A stretch of 64,000 bases of DNA from NCBI GenBank assembly GCA_017508195.1, contig JAFVZL010000039.1, positions 18,271 to 82,270 on the forward strand, read 5' to 3'. Below the pieces are notes generated by a model. It saw nothing but the letters and a program-made list of their open reading frames with translations, was not told the DNA's origin and ran no database searches. The stretch comes from Clostridia bacterium. GTDB lineage: Bacteria > Bacillota > Clostridia > Oscillospirales > CAG-272. The position numbers and the translations under genes were made by a program. This document shows positions 16,212 through 63,011 of the stretch, one piece after another (within the stretch, counting starts at the first letter, position 1; each line of letters starts with the position of its first letter).

Positions 16212-16261
16212 AGTTATTGTCGAACTTTAATTATTCGATTTTCAAAAAGGAGAACAAAAAA

Positions 16262-17662
16262 ATGAAAAAGCTATTGGCAGTACTTCTTGCCCTCACACTC
16301 GTTTTCGCTCTCACCGCGTGCTTCGCACCCGATTGCACCGAGCACGTTGACGAGAACAATGATGGCAAGTGCGACGTTTGTGACACGCCCATCGAGCCCG
16401 ATGACGGCGGCGATGAGGAGATCATGACTCACGCAGAGTACGTAGCGGCAGAAGACAATGCTGCGGTTAAGGTTAAGACCTACGTTCAGGCTAAGCAGTC
16501 CTGGTGGGAAAACAAGGGTACCTTCTATACCCAGGCTCCCGACGGTGCTTACTTCCTCTACAATATGCCCTGCACCGAGGAGCAGTACAACGCACTCGTG
16601 CCCGGCACCTGTATAATCGTCAGCGGCTTCAAGGCTGACTTCTCCGGCGAGAAGGAGATCGTCGACGCGACCTATGAGATCGTTCCCGATGATACCTACA
16701 TCGCTACCGCTACCGACCTTACTGAGAAATTCGCGAACGGTGACGATCTTCTCGCAAACCAGAACGAGTTCTTCGCTCTTAAGGGCGCAACCGTAGTTTC
16801 CAAGGCTATATACAACTGGGACGGCACAGGCTCCGCAGGCAACGACCTTTACCTCACCGTCAGCATCGGTGCTAAGCTCTACACCCTCGTTGTTGAGTCC
16901 TACCTCACCGCTGACGGCACCGAGCTCTACGATGCAGTCGAGGCTCTCGAGGCAGGCAACGTTATCGACGTTGAAGGCTTCCTCTATTGGTACAACGGCG
17001 TACAGCCTCACCTCACCAAGCTTACCGTAACCGACGAGGGTAACGTTTCTACTCACGCCGAGTTCGTAGCAGCAGAGGATGACACCGAGCACACTATCAT
17101 TACCTACGTTCAGGCTAAGCAGTCCTGGTGGGATAACAAGGGTACCTTCTATACCCAGGCTCCCGACGGTGCTTACTACCTCTACAATATGCCCTGCACC
17201 GAGGAGCAGTACAACGAGCTTACCGCAGGCACCTGCATCATGGTAACAGGCTTCAAGGCTGACTTCGCAGGTGAGAAGGAGCTCATCGATACCACCTACA
17301 CCATTCTCGGCAAGGGTGGCTTCTCTCCCAAGGCAAACGACCTCACCGATGCTTTTGCTAACGCTGAGGATCTCTTCGTTTATCAGAACGAGTTCTTCAC
17401 CGTTAAGGGTGCTACTGTAACCGCTAAGGCTATTTACAACTGGGACGGCACAGGCTCCGAGGGCAACGACCTCTACCTCGCAGTTACCGTTGGCGAGAAG
17501 GCATACACCTTTGTTGTAGAGTCCTACCTCACCGGTAACGGTACCGAGGTATACGACGGAGTAGAGGCTCTCGAGATCGGCGACGTTATCGACGTCGAGG
17601 GTTACCTCTACTGGTATGATGGCGTACAGCCTCACATCGTAAAGGTTACCGTTCAGGAGTAA
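16262..17662 (+). CDS. lipoprotein made of two tandem ~208-aa repeats, unknown function
   Basis: Lipobox LALTAC|F. An N-terminal CTEHVDENNDGKCDVCD motif. Repeat 1 (16427-17050) and repeat 2 (17051-17659) align along their whole length. Confidence 0.75.
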   Translation: MKKLLAVLLALTLVFALTACFAPDCTEHVDENNDGKCDVCDTPIEPDDGGDEEIMTHAEYVAAEDNAAVKVKTYVQAKQSWWENKGTFYTQAPDGAYFLYNMPCTEEQYNALVPGTCIIVSGFKADFSGEKEIVDATYEIVPDDTYIATATDLTEKFANGDDLLANQNEFFALKGATVVSKAIYNWDGTGSAGNDLYLTVSIGAKLYTLVVESYLTADGTELYDAVEALEAGNVIDVEGFLYWYNGVQPHLTKLTVTDEGNVSTHAEFVAAEDDTEHTIITYVQAKQSWWDNKGTFYTQAPDGAYYLYNMPCTEEQYNELTAGTCIMVTGFKADFAGEKELIDTTYTILGKGGFSPKANDLTDAFANAEDLFVYQNEFFTVKGATVTAKAIYNWDGTGSEGNDLYLAVTVGEKAYTFVVESYLTGNGTEVYDGVEALEIGDVIDVEGYLYWYDGVQPHIVKVTVQE

Positions 17663-25340: not shown

Positions 25341-25383
25341 GTGGTTGGCGCATTTTGGTATAACCGTAAATGGAATATTTATT

Positions 25384-25411
25384 GCGGGGCACTTATGTGC
25401 CTCGCTTTTTT
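25384..25411 (+). terminator. rho-independent terminator (inside repeat unit 1) for the 24699 gene
   Basis: GCGGGGCAC-TTAT-GTGCCTCGC followed by T6. The G:T pair is compatible with the + strand only. Confidence 0.75.
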
Positions 25412-25625
25412 CTTTCTACTTACCATATCAATAGGGTTGGAAAACTGCGTTTTCCTCAATTTCATTTTAATTCCATTTACTATTTCCGTTTTCCTCCTTC
25501 GCGGTACCTTTGTACCGCTCTCAGTCGGAACAACGAAAATTTCTCCTCAAAATCCCCTCAACCACTCCTCTCTATCCTCTCTTTGTGGTTGGTGCATTTT
25601 GGCATAACCGTAAATGGAGAATTTT

Positions 25626-25664
25626 AGGAGTAAGGGGCATTTGCTTCTTGCTCCTTCTTTTTTC
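25626..25664 (+). terminator. terminator-like hairpin at the equivalent position of repeat unit 2
   Basis: AGGAGTAAG ... CTTGCTCCT (one T:G pair) followed by TCTTTTTTC. The sequence is unrelated to the unit-1 hairpin but sits at the same place in the unit. Confidence 0.55.
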
Positions 25665-25812
25665 GTGGCTAAGGGCGGAAAACTCCGTTTTCCATTTTTA
25701 TTATTCTCCATTTATTATTTCCGTTCGCTTACTCTCGCTGTACCATCGTACAGCTTCGGCGCGCGAAACGAAAATTTCTCCTCAAAATCCTCTCAACCAC
25801 ACCTCTCTCTTT

Positions 25813-25970
25813 CACGTTCCCCAACGGGGAACATATCGCGTTTCGCGCCGCGAAACATATCGCTCCGCCACAGGCGGAATATCGCGTCACCCCCGGTGAC
25901 ATATCGCGCTTCGCGCAAGCGAAGCATCATAACTGCTGCCCGCGGCAGCGCTGCTTCGCAGGTCGAAGCG
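25813..25970. repeat. hairpin-train element, family 1 (copy A): about 7 short GC hairpins; ATATCGC(G) occurs four times, separating the first five
   Basis: ATATCGC(G) occurs at 25833, 25857, 25879 and 25901 (spacing 24/22/22 nt). Each interval holds a perfect 6-7-bp stem with a 3-4-nt loop. Confidence 0.8.
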
Positions 25971-25971
25971 C

Positions 25972-26013
25972 AAAAAACCACGGCTGAGTTTTTCTTCTCA
26001 GCCGTGGTTTTTT
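25972..26013. terminator. bidirectional rho-independent terminator
   Basis: A6-CCACGGCTGAG ... CTCAGCCGTGG-T6. It serves the minus-strand MFS gene (stop at 26040) and any plus-strand transcript through the repeats. Confidence 0.85.
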
Positions 26014-26039
26014 ATTGTATTTTTGCATTTTTGTAAATC

Positions 26040-27362
26040 TTAGTTTGCAATATCCGCTTCTACGGCATCATTTTCTGTCGATTTTGCGCTCTCGCGTGCG
26101 AGCACCTCTATTTGGGTTTTGCGAGCCGAAGAAATGACGAATTGCACGATAACGATAACTGCCACCATCGCGACTGCGGCGGCAATGAAGCCGACGTTGT
26201 AGCTTTTTGTGATATCGTAGCAAAGATTGAACGCAGGGGAGCCGAGGGCATAGCCCGCGGTGTTCACCGAAACGAAGATACCGAGAACCTTGTCAAAGGA
26301 TTTTGCACCGAACAGATCGGATGCGTATATCGGCAGCATGATCGTTTCAAGCGGAAGTGCGAAGGATGAAATCGCAGAGTATACAAATGCAAGTGCAATA
26401 CCTAAGGGTGATGGGTCGATAAATACGAGTATCAGCGACGATATAATTGAGACACCGATACACCATGATGTGGTGGCTCTGAGTCCTGCCTTATCGTAAA
26501 TAACGCCCGTTAAAAACTTCGCGGCTGCGAGCACCAACGAATGGAAGCTGAGTATAAGAGATATCGTATCCGCATCGATATTCACGTCACGGTAATGCGC
26601 GGCAGTTACACCCGACAGTCCCTGAAGAATAAAGCCTGAGATAAAAATGCATACGAGAATTCCCCAGAAATACTTCTTGTGAAGTGCCTCCTTGAAGCTG
26701 ATACCGACCCAATCCGTACCGCGCTTTTTCTTTGCGCCCGATTTTGCCGGCACGGCATCTATCGGCTCACGCTTGGGGTCCTTAAAGAATATGAGAAGAA
26801 GAACGCCAACTACTGCAAGCACACAGGCAACGACGATATAAGCGGTTCTGTATCCCTCCGCGCCCGATTCGATGATCGGAGAAATGATCTGTATCGCTAT
26901 CGCTCCGCCGATACCGTTAGAGGCGAGCACCGCACCCATGATCGTACCTTTATTTTCCTTACAAAGGCGCGTTACAACGTATCCGACCATCGTGGTCGTG
27001 GTCCATGAAAGACCGATGCCGAGGAACACACCCGCGAGGTAAATAAGCCACACGTTAGGTGCGAACGCATACAGAAGTGTCGATATGATAAGCGAGCCGA
27101 AGCCTGCTACGATAAGCTTCTTCGGTCCGAATTTTGCAACGAGGAAGCCAAAGAACACGTTTATTATAGCAGTAGATACGTATCTGCAGCTGTCGGTGAT
27201 CGAATACACGCTTCGGTCGATTCCGAGCGCGTTGCTTATAGGAACGATATATAAGCTCTTAGGCGACGAGCAAAAGCCGAGCGCCACAAGAACCATCAGG
27301 AAGCAAAGTCCGATAATGACCCATTTGTAATCGAAGCGCTTCCTTTGATCCGAATTATTCAT
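26040..27362 (-). CDS. MFS transporter (440 aa)
   Basis: About 12 hydrophobic segments with a central basic loop (KDPKREPIDAVPAKSGAKKKRG). Subfamily not assignable by eye. Confidence 0.75.
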   Translation of the reverse strand: MNNSDQRKRFDYKWVIIGLCFLMVLVALGFCSSPKSLYIVPISNALGIDRSVYSITDSCRYVSTAIINVFFGFLVAKFGPKKLIVAGFGSLIISTLLYAFAPNVWLIYLAGVFLGIGLSWTTTTMVGYVVTRLCKENKGTIMGAVLASNGIGGAIAIQIISPIIESGAEGYRTAYIVVACVLAVVGVLLLIFFKDPKREPIDAVPAKSGAKKKRGTDWVGISFKEALHKKYFWGILVCIFISGFILQGLSGVTAAHYRDVNIDADTISLILSFHSLVLAAAKFLTGVIYDKAGLRATTSWCIGVSIISSLILVFIDPSPLGIALAFVYSAISSFALPLETIMLPIYASDLFGAKSFDKVLGIFVSVNTAGYALGSPAFNLCYDITKSYNVGFIAAAVAMVAVIVIVQFVISSARKTQIEVLARESAKSTENDAVEADIAN

Positions 27363-35651: not shown

Positions 35652-36030
35652 CTATTCTCCTCGTTTCCCTCACGTTCTCGCACCGCGAGAACATATCGCG
35701 CTTTCCCTCGGAAAGCATATCGCTCCGCCACAGGCGGAATATCGCGTCACCTCTCGGTGACATATCGCGCTTCGCACAAGCGAAGCACTCATAACGCGAC
35801 ATAGTCGCTCATAACTGCTACCCGTGGCAGCCCTTCTCCTCGTTCCCTCACGTTCTCGCACCGCGAGAACATATCGCGCTTTCCCTCGGAAAGCATATCG
35901 CTCCGCCACAGGCGGAATATCGCGTCACCTCCCGGTGACATATCGCGCTTCGCACAAGCGAAGCATACCCGGGCTTCATCCTCTGGAGCAGGATTTCATT
36001 TATAGCTTCTCCCCCTCACGTTCTCGCACC
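35652..36030. repeat. hairpin-train element, family 1 (copies B and C, tandem 178-bp units, plus a truncated third start)
   Basis: ATATCGC(G) at 35693/35717/35739/35762 and again at 35871/35895/35917/35940 (offset 178). CACGTTCTCGCACC restarts at 36017 and then diverges. Confidence 0.85.
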
Positions 36031-36129: not shown

Positions 36130-36171
36130 CATATTCAATTTATAGTTATGAGCCAAGCTCACCGTTAAGTT

Positions 36172-36491
36172 CGGTAGCTAATTAATTTTGATGGATAGTG
36201 TCAGACGCGACCCGAAGCAATAGTGACCTATTGCGAGCTTGGGAGCGATCGGGTGCTTGCCGCGGTAGCTGATTACGCGGTAGCTGATTAATTCCGATGG
36301 ATAGTGTCTGACGCGACCCGAAGCAATAGTGACCTATTGCGAGCTTGGGAGCGATCGGTGCTTGCCGCGGTAGCTGATTACGCGGTAGCTAATTAATTTC
36401 GATGGATAGTGTCAGGCGCGACCCGAAGCAATAGTGACCTATTGCGAGCTTGGGAGCGATCGGGTGCTTGCCGCGAAATTAATAGCTACCG
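36172..36491. repeat. 3 x ~105-bp tandem array bracketed by 18/19-nt inverted repeats (MITE-like)
   Basis: Units start at 36172, 36278 and 36383. Left end is CGGTAGCTAATTAATTT. Right end is CGAAATTAATAGCTACCG, the reverse complement of the unit start minus 1 nt. No ORF. Each unit contains a GCAATAG-TGAC-CTATTGC hairpin. Confidence 0.8.
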
Positions 36492-37087
36492 ATTGACAAC
36501 ACCGCAGATATAGCTACAACCAATGGGAACACAGCAAGCACTCCCGATGCAATCATCTCACAGAGCGATACTATACTGAGTATGCCCTCCGAATGCTTTC
36601 TCGAATAGCGCGCGAGCACGAGCACGATAATAGAAATAATGAGGGAACATATACCGTACGCCATAAGAAGCATTACCGACGTCGCCATGCTTATACCCGC
36701 CATAACAGCGTTTTCGCCGCCTGCCATAAGCATCGAAAAAGCGACAGAAAGATCTGAGGATGCCTTGAATGCAAAGCATATGAACACAACGTTCAGTATG
36801 ATGAAAACGCCCGAAGCGATAGCAAATCCGAGCGCGGATGCAAAGCTCTTTACGGGTGCTTCACTCTCCCCCTCGTCATTCTCCTCGCTCTCGCTCTTTT
36901 CCGCATCCGACTTATCGGCACCGTCTGTATCGGCATTATCCGCCTCTCCCTCTTGTATAGGAGTATCGGATAGTATTTCCCCATCCGCCGTATCGTCATC
37001 GCTTTCTGTTATATCGAGCTCTTCATTGTCATAGCTTTCGTCAGGAGCAACGTCGAGCTGCTGTTCTAGATAATCCGGTTTAGCCAT
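36479..37087 (-). CDS. membrane protein with ~85-aa highly acidic N-terminal region and 4 TM segments, unknown function
   Basis: ATG 37087 is preceded by GGAGGTGA (the listed GTG 37096 lies inside the SD). The last 4-5 codons and the stop lie inside the right inverted repeat of the 105-bp array. Confidence 0.6.
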   Translation of the reverse strand: MAKPDYLEQQLDVAPDESYDNEELDITESDDDTADGEILSDTPIQEGEADNADTDGADKSDAEKSESEENDEGESEAPVKSFASALGFAIASGVFIILNVVFICFAFKASSDLSVAFSMLMAGGENAVMAGISMATSVMLLMAYGICSLIISIIVLVLARYSRKHSEGILSIVSLCEMIASGVLAVFPLVVAISAVLSIGSY

Positions 37088-37212
37088 AGCGTTCACCTCC
37101 GATAGTGCTATTTTACCACTTTTTTACCTTTAAGTCAATACCGTTTAAGAACATAGGCACGGATGCGGGAATACAATAGAAAAAAAGCCATAAAAAAATC
37201 TGTAAATGCCTG

Positions 37213-62436: not shown

Positions 62437-62778
62437 TCACTGGTTTTTCAAAGTCGTAACAGACGAGACAAGCATACGGCGGATACTGCCGCAATCGTGA
62501 AGTGCTTTTTTTAATGCTTCTTCCGGTATAATGGATGCTCTTTGCATTAACTCCAACCAATACTCCGTTTCATAACGCTCCTTGAGTGCGATTTGTAATT
62601 TCGAGGTGAGATCCGCTTTACTTTGAGCATATTTTGCTTCTCTTATATTTGCACCTATACTTGTAGCAGCGCGTTCGAGTTGGTTTTTGAGAGAATAATG
62701 CCCTTGAATTTGGTCACATAGATTTAAAATTTTCACGGAAAAATCCATAGATAAGTCAGCTAACCTATTCTCTTTCAT
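62437..62778 (-). CDS. four-helix-bundle protein (TIGR02436; 23S rRNA intervening-sequence protein family)
   Basis: 113 aa. SIGANIREAKYAQSKADLTSKLQIALKERYETEYWLELM is the family signature. Confidence 0.8.
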   Translation of the reverse strand: MKENRLADLSMDFSVKILNLCDQIQGHYSLKNQLERAATSIGANIREAKYAQSKADLTSKLQIALKERYETEYWLELMQRASIIPEEALKKALHDCGSIRRMLVSSVTTLKNQ

Positions 62779-62796
62779 GAAAGCTCTCCAAATAAT

Positions 62797-62989
62797 GAAA
62801 TCCCGCGACCTTCAGTCGCGCGAAGAAATCTTCACTGCGTTCAGAAGAAATCCGCCTTCAGCGGAATAAGTCGAAAACTTTGTTTTCGGTTAGAATTAAA
62901 TCCACCCACCGCCGCAGCGATTTCTTCCGAGCTTCAGCGAGGATTTCTTCTGCGTAGCAGATTTATTCCACCATCAGGTGGATTTAATT
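62797..62989. repeat. hairpin/linker train, family 2 (GAAGAAATC linker in both orientations)
   Basis: Partial GAAATCC at 62797, full GAAGAAATC at 62822 and 62844, and the reverse complement GATTTCTTC at 62919 and 62942. Hairpins are CGCGAC-CTTCA-GTCGCG, CCGC-CTTCA-GCGG, CGAAAAC-TTT-GTTTTCG and TCCACC-ATCA-GGTGGA. Confidence 0.7.
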
Positions 62990-63010
62990 GAAAACACCAT
63001 CGGTGTTTTC
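62990..63010 (-). terminator. probable guaA terminator
   Basis: GAAAACACC-ATC-GGTGTTTTC, 2 nt after the stop. The U-tract lies partly within the stem. Confidence 0.5.
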
Positions 63011-63011
63011 C

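Follow-up and report, generated by a model that had tools for sequence, protein, structure and literature searches.

The main finding of this study concerns a chain of short hairpins (train A) at positions 25816-25925 on the plus strand of a 64,000-nt stretch of Clostridia bacterium DNA (Oscillospirales, CAG-272; contig JAFVZL010000039.1), which was analysed as a whole and is called the window below. Train A, its sister trains B and C, and a truncated fourth copy (D) are, with good support, the "solo right arm" form of a family of hairpins and heptamers present in gut and rumen Clostridia. It is also well supported that the two-armed form of the family, which we call the composite, is the leader of genes encoding PF05635 four-helix-bundle proteins, with the Rfam family Gut-1 as its left arm, and that the class of elements carrying the heptamer ATATCGC is spread through protein-coding regions of Oscillospirales-type genomes, often without a PF05635 gene. 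Trains A-C are relatives of Gut-1, a kinship missed by an earlier note on this DNA, which had been made from the sequence alone and had proposed selection on structure. The function that we propose is held more tentatively: a dispersed structured-RNA module, probably made from the plus strand, whose stable hairpins would display identical heptamers for pairing or for a factor that reads repeats.

Results

Anatomy of train A and its sister copies

Train A, as read from the sequence, is a core of five perfect hairpins joined by four ATATCGC linkers: H1 (25816-25832, GTTCCCC-AAC-GGGGAAC), H2 (25840-25856, GTTTCGC-GCC-GCGAAAC), H3 (25864-25878, TCCGCC-ACA-GGCGGA), H4 (25886-25900, GTCACC-CCC-GGTGAC) and H5 (25908-25925, GCTTCGC-GCAA-GCGAAGC), all on the plus strand. 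A motif scan of the window places the linkers at 25833, 25857, 25879 and 25901, which confirms that train A has the linkers and spacing described in the earlier note. The unit periods are 24/22/22/22 nt, and H2-H4 close with runs of 6-7 perfect pairs. The core is preceded on the same strand by a variant linker of the ATTTCAC type (25807-25815, CTCTTTCAC), itself behind a CU-rich run (...TCAACCACACCTCTCT), and is extended on its 3' side (25926-25969) by the linker ATCATAA and two further hairpins, CTGCTG-CCCG-CGGCAG (25933-25948; CTGCTGCCCGCGGCAG), which has a T.G wobble on the plus strand, and GCTTCG-CAGGT-CGAAGC (25953-25969). The strong bidirectional intrinsic terminator that had been reported to abut the train is confirmed by a terminator scan at 25972-26013, where a 17-pair stem has T-runs on either side; it is the end of the minus-strand MFS gene (26040-27362) and of any plus-strand transcript of train A.

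Train B was recovered by repeat, motif and hairpin-chain scans at 35674-35786 of the plus strand, with extra hairpins to 35830. Its hairpins lie at 35674-35692 (H1), 35700-35716 (H2), 35724-35738 (H3), 35746-35761 (H4) and 35769-35786 (H5), its ATATCGC linkers are at 35693, 35717, 35739 and 35762, and two hairpins linked by TCATAA follow (CGCGACATAGTCGC at 35795-35808 and CTGCTACCCGTGGCAG at 35815-35830). Train C (35852-35964, plus strand; linkers at 35871, 35895, 35917 and 35940) is a 178-nt tandem duplicate of train B, 99% identical over 123 nt. Copy D (35990-36030, plus strand) starts with a centre-like AGGATTTCATTTATAGC, continues with CTTCTCCCCCTCAC and retains of H1 just GTTCTCGCACC (36020-36030), a stump that the earlier note did not mention. 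Composites in other genomes have a centre, GTGAGGATTTATAGGTAGCG...CCACCAC|GTTCGCC, to which this copy is similar.

Direct reading of the three trains bears out the pattern that had drawn attention to them. H1 and H2 are exchanged for other stems, with GTTCTCGC-ACC-GCGAGAAC and GCTTTCC-CTC-GGAAAGC in trains B and C, while H3 (TCCGCC-ACA-GGCGGA) is the same in all three, and H4 and H5 have constant stems with loops that vary (CCC, TCTC or TCCC in H4; GCAA or ACAA in H5). The paired change in the downstream hairpin is there too: between CTGCTGCCCGCGGCAG (25933-25948) and CTGCTACCCGTGGCAG (35815-35830) the pair at positions 6-11 goes from G-C to A-T, and the T.G wobble at 5-12 of the plus strand is kept in both. 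The 15 hairpins of the window trains contain zero mismatches. Between A and B there are no changes in 28 linker bases and in the 38 stem bases of H3-H5, against about 40% change in H1 and H2 (H2 differs at 8 of 17 positions and H1 is largely replaced), and train B carries an extra hairpin module (CGCGACATAGTCGC plus TCATAA). Modules near-identical to those of the window occur in trains of other species (GTTTCGC-AAC-GCGAAAC in L053, GTTCGCC-ACA-GGCGAAC in L069).

The difference between A and B, as these sequences suggest, is better described as an exchange of whole hairpin modules, taken from a repertoire shared by the family and each constrained to be a hairpin. Only part of the compensatory signature claimed in the earlier note therefore survives: every module stays a hairpin, but module replacement is not clean stepwise compensation. 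Similarly, the patchwork recombination that had been named as a refuting scenario is partly what we see, given the near-identical modules in other species, and structural constraint nevertheless stands, every module being a hairpin. Stepwise compensation with G.U intermediates is genuine between related trains of other genomes, which differ by compensated changes such as GTTGTCACAAGCAAC / GTTGTCACAAACAAC / GTTGCCGCAGGTAAC.

Structure rather than coding

The pattern stands well above expectation in the window, where ATATCGC has 26 matches versus 15.2 +/- 3.6 in shuffles, and where chains of at least three perfect hairpins (stem of at least 5) number five, three of them being trains A, B and C, versus zero in three shuffles. 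RNA folding of 25806-26016 (211 nt) gives z = -9.9 on the plus strand and z = -8.1 on the minus strand. Train A is not an assembly artefact, because independent assemblies of other samples (L177, L178) carry it at 99.96-100% identity. It is a lineage-specific gain, since species with a 68-73% identical MFS keep the LRR-MFS-213-aa-esterase/TetR synteny and have no train in the matching intergenic regions.

The earlier argument against a peptide proved sound: 1-nt differences in loop length between copies (CCC versus TCTC) shift the frame, so that there is no conserved reading frame. A 140-aa open reading frame (ORF) at 25614-26036 (+) (L177 4327-4749), which is a gene call in the ENA annotation, covers the repeat unit, train A and the terminator and has no Pfam hit. 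This ORF is almost certainly spurious, and it serves as an example for genome annotation of how hairpin trains give rise to spurious ORF calls.

A family of ATATCGC hairpin trains

We scanned one genome per species, for 185,579 species, with the pattern ATATCGC-N14-19-ATATCGC-N14-19-ATATCGC, which gave at least 120 genome loci; all counts for the ATATCGC family rest on the matches listed. Hairpin-type trains are found at 74 loci (73 among the genome matches listed, plus the window), the other matches being ordinary tandem repeats. The hairpin-train loci that have record titles are metagenome-assembled genomes (MAGs) of gut or rumen Clostridia (Oscillospiraceae, Ruminococcaceae, Acutalibacteraceae, Christensenella). 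These 74 loci yield 283 distinct inter-linker segments, 77% of which have at least four perfect closing Watson-Crick pairs, versus 0.8% of shuffles, and the 165 segments having at least five pairs include 77 different 5-nt stems. Because segments pair while stems differ, it is "hairpin", and not sequence, that the family conserves. Selection on structure, as claimed in the earlier note, is thus upheld at the level of the family, while the window alone, with two independent copies, is a weak case for it. At nested positions on the ATATCGC strand, Watson-Crick pairs number 1491, and the exceptions (GA/AG 86 versus TC/CT 11; GT/TG 47 versus AC/CA 25) are ones that a folded single strand with the polarity of ATATCGC can tolerate. 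Alignment-free statistics were used because the hairpins differ in length and are not position-homologous. Covariation scored on an alignment, as the earlier note had proposed, was informative for one slot: plain MAFFT plus RNAalifold on solo trains keeps hairpin 2 alone in register, with compensatory changes at all 6 pairs, and the other hairpins fall out of register.

The solo form is defined by five hairpins, four exact ATATCGC linkers, an H1 of the type GTT...AAC after (T)CAC/CTC, an intergenic position and no partner arm within 200 nt. Trains A-C have this format, and so do trains in L003, L019, L026, L034, L042, L067, L085, L098, L099, L115 and other loci. In solo trains 90% of pairs are Watson-Crick, with G.T exceptions at 24 versus A.C at 9. 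The train in L026 leads into a PF05635 gene and is preceded by CTTTCAACCAC|GTTTGC. Across the family the inter-site spacing of the heptamers is 15-29 bp, and typical right-arm loops are mostly GAA, GCA or GTA (triloop counts 25, 23 and 14, respectively), closed by C-G. Solo trains often lie between convergent genes beside terminators, and ATATCGC elements as a whole have assorted housekeeping genes as neighbours, with no orientation bias (49:49 on each side). On this orientation count we rejected, for the ATATCGC class, the idea of a cis-regulatory element in the 5' untranslated region (UTR) of the downstream gene, which holds solely for PF05635. A search of 2.9 million viral contigs gave 56 pattern matches and no hairpin train, and hence no phage link, and a metagenome scan for exact H3 plus linkers gave 0 matches.

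Some loci depart from the simple arrangement. The 8-kb loci L095, L019, L105, L107 and L119 hold three to five arms apiece, placed between one gene and the next, and in L119 a train plus the 5' part of a PF05635 gene is repeated several times in tandem. Mixed trains also exist, with AATTCAT then ATATCGC in L016 and ATATCAC then ATATCGC in L011.

The two-armed composite and Gut-1

Among ATATCGC elements the composite is a commoner form than the solo train. A variable 5' hairpin opens it, ahead of a left arm in which GCGATAT (in the family at large, a heptamer of the G[CU]GA[AU]AU type) connects about four hairpins, beginning with AAATYCC-N4-GGRATTT. After a last hairpin, for example GTCCC-TTC-GGGAC, come a centre, G(A/T)GA...GGAATTTATATC, which repeats the 3' half of the first hairpin, and a right arm whose hairpins, again about four, are joined by ATATCGC, the reverse complement of the left heptamer. 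A linker count of 4+4 is the mode, found in 38 of 66 composites. Right arms contain tandem sheared G.A hairpins (AACCGAG...CGAGGTT, ACGAACGAAGTGAGT; 63 G.A versus 3 T.C), and left arms are almost purely Watson-Crick. We rejected the possibility that the left arm is simply a right arm turned round to work from the opposite strand, as both arms fold better on the PF05635 sense strand.

Gut-1 (RF01706) was described as a likely RNA, not cis-regulatory, known solely from human-gut metagenomes (Weinberg et al. 2010, PMC2864571), and our literature search on Gut-1 found nothing beyond that 2010 survey. The consensus of its model is three hairpins joined by GUGAAAU, and the linkers in its seed are GUGAAAU, GUGAUAU and GCGAUAU. 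The seed alignment contains a GUGAUAU left arm, a centre and then, beyond the modelled part, AUAUCAC hairpins, which is the composite layout. In 19 of 20 metagenome loci with a PF05635 gene, the sense strand has a Gut-1 match of 57-80 bits that covers the left arm and lies 130-230 nt upstream of the gene, and in L225 and L262 the right arm also matches the model, antisense, at about 50 bits. In L039 (2374-2900) a single intergenic region holds a GCGATAT/ATATCGC composite and, 300 nt away, a GTGATAT/ATATCAC composite (57 bits against Gut-1).

A search of the window with Rfam at the gathering threshold found nothing. In a permissive search train A matches Gut-1 at 29.2 bits on the minus strand (25804-25887) and train C at 18.7 bits, both under the gathering score of 50, and the trains are accordingly not Gut-1 members at that threshold. 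Read on the minus strand (GCGAUAU), they would show the Gut-1 layout of at least three short hairpins with a G[UC]GA[AU]AU heptamer, but the G.U and G.A asymmetry of the family, the local T.G wobble and the terminator favour the plus strand (AUAUCGC), on which they would be a mirror-image right arm. Since Gut-1 is the left arm and the window trains are of the mirror-image right-arm type, the weak match on the reverse strand is explained. Trains A-C have one arm apiece, with no GCGATAT array in the 64-kb window and no PF05635 remnant near the trains, and are thus not two-armed composites; the element at 62794-63011(-) is.

PF05635 genes and their leaders

This composite of the window (62794-63011, minus strand), identified by reading the sequence and from a hairpin chain at 62949-63010, lies directly upstream of a 112-aa PF05635 (23S_rRNA_IVP, four-helix-bundle) gene at 62443-62778 on the minus strand (tblastn 3.7e-30; Pfam 3.6e-24; PDB 2RLD 5e-24). 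The closest solved relative of the encoded protein, 2RLD, has five chains. The composite has GAAGAAATC in its left arm, GATTTCTTC in its right arm, AAATCCACC-TGAT-GGTGGA as P1, the hairpin whose 3' half recurs in the centre, and GGTGGATTTAATT as centre, a layout that it shares with 60 of the 68 PF05635 upstream regions described below. Its heptamers, GAAGAAA/TTTCTTC, differ from those of the flagged trains, and two heptamer classes therefore coexist in one genome.

PF05635 genes of 113-118 aa are the one recurrent neighbour of ATATCGC elements, starting 14-40 nt past the last linker at about ten loci. An alignment of PF05635 proteins was used to fetch 80 metagenome loci (L187-L266), which comprise 68 distinct upstream regions. 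In 60 of these 68 the hexamer repeated on the left is the reverse complement of the one repeated on the right, and the pairs fall into at least eight classes (GAAATC/GATTTC, TGAAAT/ATTTCA, GAAATA/TATTTC, GTGAAA/TTTCAC, GATGAA/TTCATC, TGAAGT/ACTTCA and others). tRNA genes of some twenty kinds accompany about 40 of 60 of these loci, nearly always on the PF05635 strand and mostly ending about 200-470 nt upstream of the start, and L265 (710-1536) has 5S rRNA, tRNA-Asn, Gut-1 and PF05635 in that order. Near ATATCGC-class loci, tRNA genes were found at 0 of 50 apart from one dubious call. Promoters (TTGAAA/TTGATA-17-TGnTATAAT) lie just upstream of composites in L013 and L113, and many GTGAAAT-class loci have a terminator before the composite and a -10-like box between composite and gene.

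Two further arrangements were noted in the metagenome loci: tRNA-Gly(gcc) flanks the Gut-1/PF05635 cassette on both sides in L217 and L224 (652-2043), and further Gut-1 copies come after the PF05635 gene in L224 and L263.

A protein of the same ORF family from X. campestris is a homopentameric toroid. In the 23S rRNA intervening sequence (IVS) of Coxiella, the S23p ORF is preceded by two to three tandem heptamers, GACAGAT, and RNase III, which excises the sequence, cuts at the first repeat (PMC4990558).

Possible pairing between heptamers

In minimum free energy folds of six composites, left heptamers mostly pair with right heptamers, which generates a ladder of four-way junctions. At the level of classes, the covariation between arms is strong (60/68, at least eight classes), and in the window composite the outermost pair deviates jointly (AATAAATC with GATTTCATT versus the inner GAAGAAATC with GATTTCTTC). 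All eight heptamers of an element change together; this requires concerted evolution and, in addition, either pairing or a reader that evolves along with them. An alternative long helix, in which the first left heptamer and the 5' half of P1 pair with the centre, covaries equally well, and the leader may switch between the ladder fold and this long-helix fold.

The strand of the trains

In PF05635 leaders the gene sets the sense strand, and the upstream 210 nt fold better on it in 52 of 67 loci (mean -3.45 kcal/mol), with a Wilcoxon p = 2e-7 that is indicative, the loci not being phylogenetically independent. Local G.U pairs in these leaders number 206 on the sense strand versus 96 on the antisense strand. 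Folding energy does not discriminate the strand of the window trains because their stems are perfect. For these trains we favour the plus strand, with modest confidence, because of three features: the conserved T.G wobble in 25933-25948 and 35815-35830, which would be C.A on the minus strand; the terminator directly 3' of train A on plus, which shields the train from the minus-strand MFS transcript; and the 5' flank, ...TCAACCAC...TTTCAC|GTT, which resembles that of L026, whose train runs into a PF05635 gene. Terminator counts for strand assignment (7 versus 3 and 7 versus 2) are too few to use.

A CU-rich run (TTCTCCTC...TCAC) precedes every train on the plus strand (25774-25815, 35652-35673, 35831-35851 and 36007-36019). 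If it is on the RNA, it would resemble an anti-Shine-Dalgarno-like seed. Read on the minus strand, these flanks are GTGAGGGA in copies B, C and D and GTGAAAG in A, like the start of the centre after composite left arms.

Neighbouring genes and other repeats in the window

The neighbours of the trains are a 221-aa ORF without a Pfam match and genes for MFS, LRR and SASA-esterase proteins, and no stable-RNA neighbour was found beside the flagged trains. Between the 221-aa gene and train A (25341-25812) there are two tandem units of about 240 nt (244-nt unit), three in the sister assembly L177; in other assemblies the units are at L177 4324-5267 and L181 4360-4830. A terminator-like hairpin and a GGAAAAC..GTTTTCC hairpin recur in each unit, along with an enclosing helix, TAAATGGA(GA)AT / AT(TC)TCCATTTA, in which an insertion is compensated. 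The units have no Rfam match; a related unit follows the orthologous gene in a relative with 72% identity, so that a conserved structure of the 3' UTR, separate from the trains, is possible. Between the trains and the 205-aa gene 36479-37096(-), a 105-nt unit is repeated about 2.9 times (36146-36475, 94% matches); it too is without an Rfam match, and a minus-strand terminator (36130-36103) follows this repeat region. Two long direct repeats at 16478-17632 (300 nt at 77% and 197 nt at 88%, spacing 624 nt), inside a 481-aa ORF (16217-17662), look like an internal protein repeat unrelated to the trains.

Discussion

In the reading that we prefer, the plus strand would be transcribed through train A into an RNA that ends at the terminator 25972-26013 and has the train in its 3' part. 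The five very stable hairpins would act as rigid, nuclease-resistant spacers, and four or five single-stranded AUAUCGC heptamers, held exposed at a fixed pitch, would be the working parts. In composites the heptamers would zip against the complementary heptamers of the other arm, and in solo trains they would be free to pair in trans with a GCGAUAU arm. Alternatively, the heptamers might be read by a repeat-recognising factor, for which the pentameric PF05635 protein is the obvious candidate. Protection of the 3' end of the transcript would be a by-product. On such a model the hairpins would be interchangeable modules for which any stable stem suffices, so that stems could be swapped whole while the heptamers evolve in concert.

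Several observations weigh against this proposal. The register test on the ladder is weakly positive, with the ladder beating the mean register in 17 loci versus 5 and being the best in 7 of 23, and L093 has TCGATAT x4 versus ATATCGC without compensation. The sole composite in the window uses other heptamers, which leaves AUAUCGC with no visible partner in cis or nearby in trans. The part given to PF05635 is pure conjecture, and, given the -10-like box between composite and gene in many GTGAAAT-class loci, the PF05635 mRNA may in some cases lack the composite. As to the strand, the window stems are perfect palindromes with similar z-scores on both strands, the window loops AAC, GCC, CCC, CTC and TCTC are atypical for right arms of the family, and minus-strand terminators flank trains B and C, around which plus-strand promoter and terminator scans gave nothing convincing. 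Finally, the sense-strand bias of the leaders, besides coming from related loci, would fit folding of single-stranded DNA (ssDNA) on the lagging-strand template equally well, because the sense strands of co-oriented genes are that template.

A more ambitious version, which we regard as improbable, is an RNA system centred on a pentameric PF05635 (S23p/Avd-like) protein, with a self-zipping ladder leader and trans-acting or decoy solo trains that together form a genome-wide regulatory or selfish network. In this version tRNA/rRNA operon transcripts would carry the ladder leader, made of the Gut-1 arm and its mirror arm, pairing of its eight identical heptamers would lead to its excision or switching, and the solo trains, including 25816-25925, would pair with a complementary arm or wrap one hairpin per pentamer subunit.

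The alternative that deserves most attention, although we think it unlikely, is a dispersed repeat at the DNA level, similar to repetitive extragenic palindromes (REP), bacterial interspersed mosaic elements (BIME), REP doublets forming hairpins (REPIN) or miniature inverted-repeat transposable elements (MITE). The hairpins would then fold in ssDNA, on the lagging-strand template or during transfer, the heptamer at the hairpin foot would be the site of a trans-acting nuclease or transposase that copies the trains, and RNA structure would be a by-product. The copies are indeed dispersed and intergenic with no orientation bias to genes, train A is present lineage-specifically, train B has been locally duplicated in tandem into C, a truncated copy is present, and L095, L019, L105 and L107 have several trains within 8 kb. 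The two inverted arms resemble REP doublets, the eight heptamers of an element change in concert, and a strand bias is also expected of a lagging-strand template. The GNA triloops closed by C-G (GAA 25, GCA 23, GTA 14) fit as well, C-GNA-G triloops being a classic extra-stable DNA mini-hairpin. However, no transposase, REP-associated tyrosine transposase (RAYT) or integrase was seen beside any copy, PF05635 alone being a recurrent neighbour, and no Y1-transposase-like gene is among the downstream genes listed. MITE features (terminal inverted repeats, target-site duplication) were not seen at the ends of A, B and C, the empty sites of relatives being too diverged for insertion borders. Within one genome REPs or MITEs are almost the same in sequence, and a Y1 transposase requires particular hairpins, whereas the hairpins of this family are highly diverse within and between genomes (77 stems among 165) and come in a fixed number, 4+4 or 5. 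Moreover, none are in viral contigs, and tandem G.A geometry with bona fide covariation led the Rfam curators to call the left arm RNA.

It seems to us quite unlikely that the solo trains are functionless relics, that is, decaying leftovers of PF05635 leaders (right arms that lost gene and left arm, or local duplicates) whose palindromes are kept by recency, gene conversion or template-switch "quasipalindrome correction", and not by selection at the locus. The mosaic of A versus B/C, with 0 changes in the H3-H5 stems and linkers versus about 40% in H1/H2, would suit this explanation, and so would the duplicate train C with the stump at 36020-36030, a region rich in other tandem duplications (244-nt x2, x3 in L177; 105-nt x3), the missing train at the syntenic sites of relatives and the lack of a PF05635 remnant near the trains. 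Yet solo trains of many unrelated MAGs keep the format of five hairpins and four linkers with 90% Watson-Crick pairs, related solo trains of different species differ by compensated changes, and the 15 window hairpins are without any mismatch; nor is G.T at 24 versus A.C at 9 expected from neutral decay or from palindrome correction at the DNA level. A protein-binding array on duplex DNA, in which the heptamers are iteron- or operator-like sites, four per orientation around the centre, for a co-evolving protein, is very improbable. It would account for heptamers that change in concert and are present in both orientations, for the -10-like boxes beside many composites and for a period of about 22-24 bp, which approximates two turns of the helix, but spacings of 15-29 bp imply no helical phasing and such an array gives no reason for spacers that are perfect palindromes of unconstrained sequence. 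Duplex DNA would also offer no explanation for G.T and G.A exceptions that favour one strand, and solo trains often lie between convergent genes, beside terminators.

Other identities were rejected. A CRISPR array would not have a 7-nt repeat with "spacers" that are palindromes of 15-19 nt, and the neighbours scanned contain no cas-like domain. Type III toxin-antitoxin (ToxI-like) repeats were set aside because the units differ in sequence and length (22-26 nt) and the neighbours are the 221-aa ORF, MFS, LRR and SASA-esterase. The anatomy is wrong for attC sites, iterons or a peptide repeat, and the diversity of the palindromes (77 stems among 165 segments) speaks against membership in REP/BIME-REPIN.

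Gut-1 has been an orphan Rfam family since 2010, known from metagenomes only, without a gene association or a proposed role. What is new here is that Gut-1 is half of a mirror-symmetric element, that PF05635 genes usually have this element as their upstream partner, at the ends of tRNA/rRNA operons, and that its heptamers evolve in concert in both arms, one class having multiplied as solo trains in Oscillospirales-type genomes. PF05635 proteins (S23p of the 23S IVS, relatives of Avd from diversity-generating retroelements) have no known function outside these retroelements, and a conserved structured partner makes their function experimentally approachable.

Comparison with known systems places the trains among several of them. 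REP, BIME and REPIN elements of Proteobacteria are abundant intergenic palindromes, often in inverted pairs with conserved linkers, that vary between strains; they are orientation-independent, are transcribed within mRNAs and can stabilise upstream RNA, and the REP palindromes of one genome share their sequence and a GTAG-type foot recognised by the RAYT transposase. The trains are likewise intergenic palindromic units joined by conserved short linkers, but their palindrome sequence is free, the linker is what is conserved, the number of units does not vary and no RAYT was seen beside any copy. BOX elements of Streptococcus pneumoniae (boxA-boxB(n)-boxC) are modular, with modules conserved in sequence and variable in number. 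Trains have in common with them, and with other MITE-like repeats of Firmicutes, a modular intergenic make-up with internal modules in tandem, a strong predicted fold as RNA and copies dispersed close to genes, and differ from BOX in their conserved linkers, variable hairpins and fixed number. There is also an analogy with CsrB/RsmZ decoy RNAs, strings of hairpins presenting many copies of one short motif; in CsrB the motif is GGA, in loops, and the binding protein is known, whereas the motif of the trains is in linkers and has no known binder. The 23S rRNA IVS resembles the family in that a PF05635-family gene lies in a stable-RNA operon, bracketed by complementary sequences forming a processed stem, much as Gut-1/PF05635 composites are placed after tRNA or 5S genes. 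It differs in its location within 23S helices 25 or 45 and in having one long stem instead of hairpin trains, and the flagged trains have neither an ORF nor a stable-RNA neighbour. The closest likeness is to Gut-1, which is also made of tandem short hairpins with a conserved heptamer and also comes from metagenomes of gut Clostridia type. The window trains differ from it in using ATATCGC, in having five hairpins and in standing alone, without left arm, centre or PF05635 gene, and their counterpart is the right arm, a part left outside the Rfam model.

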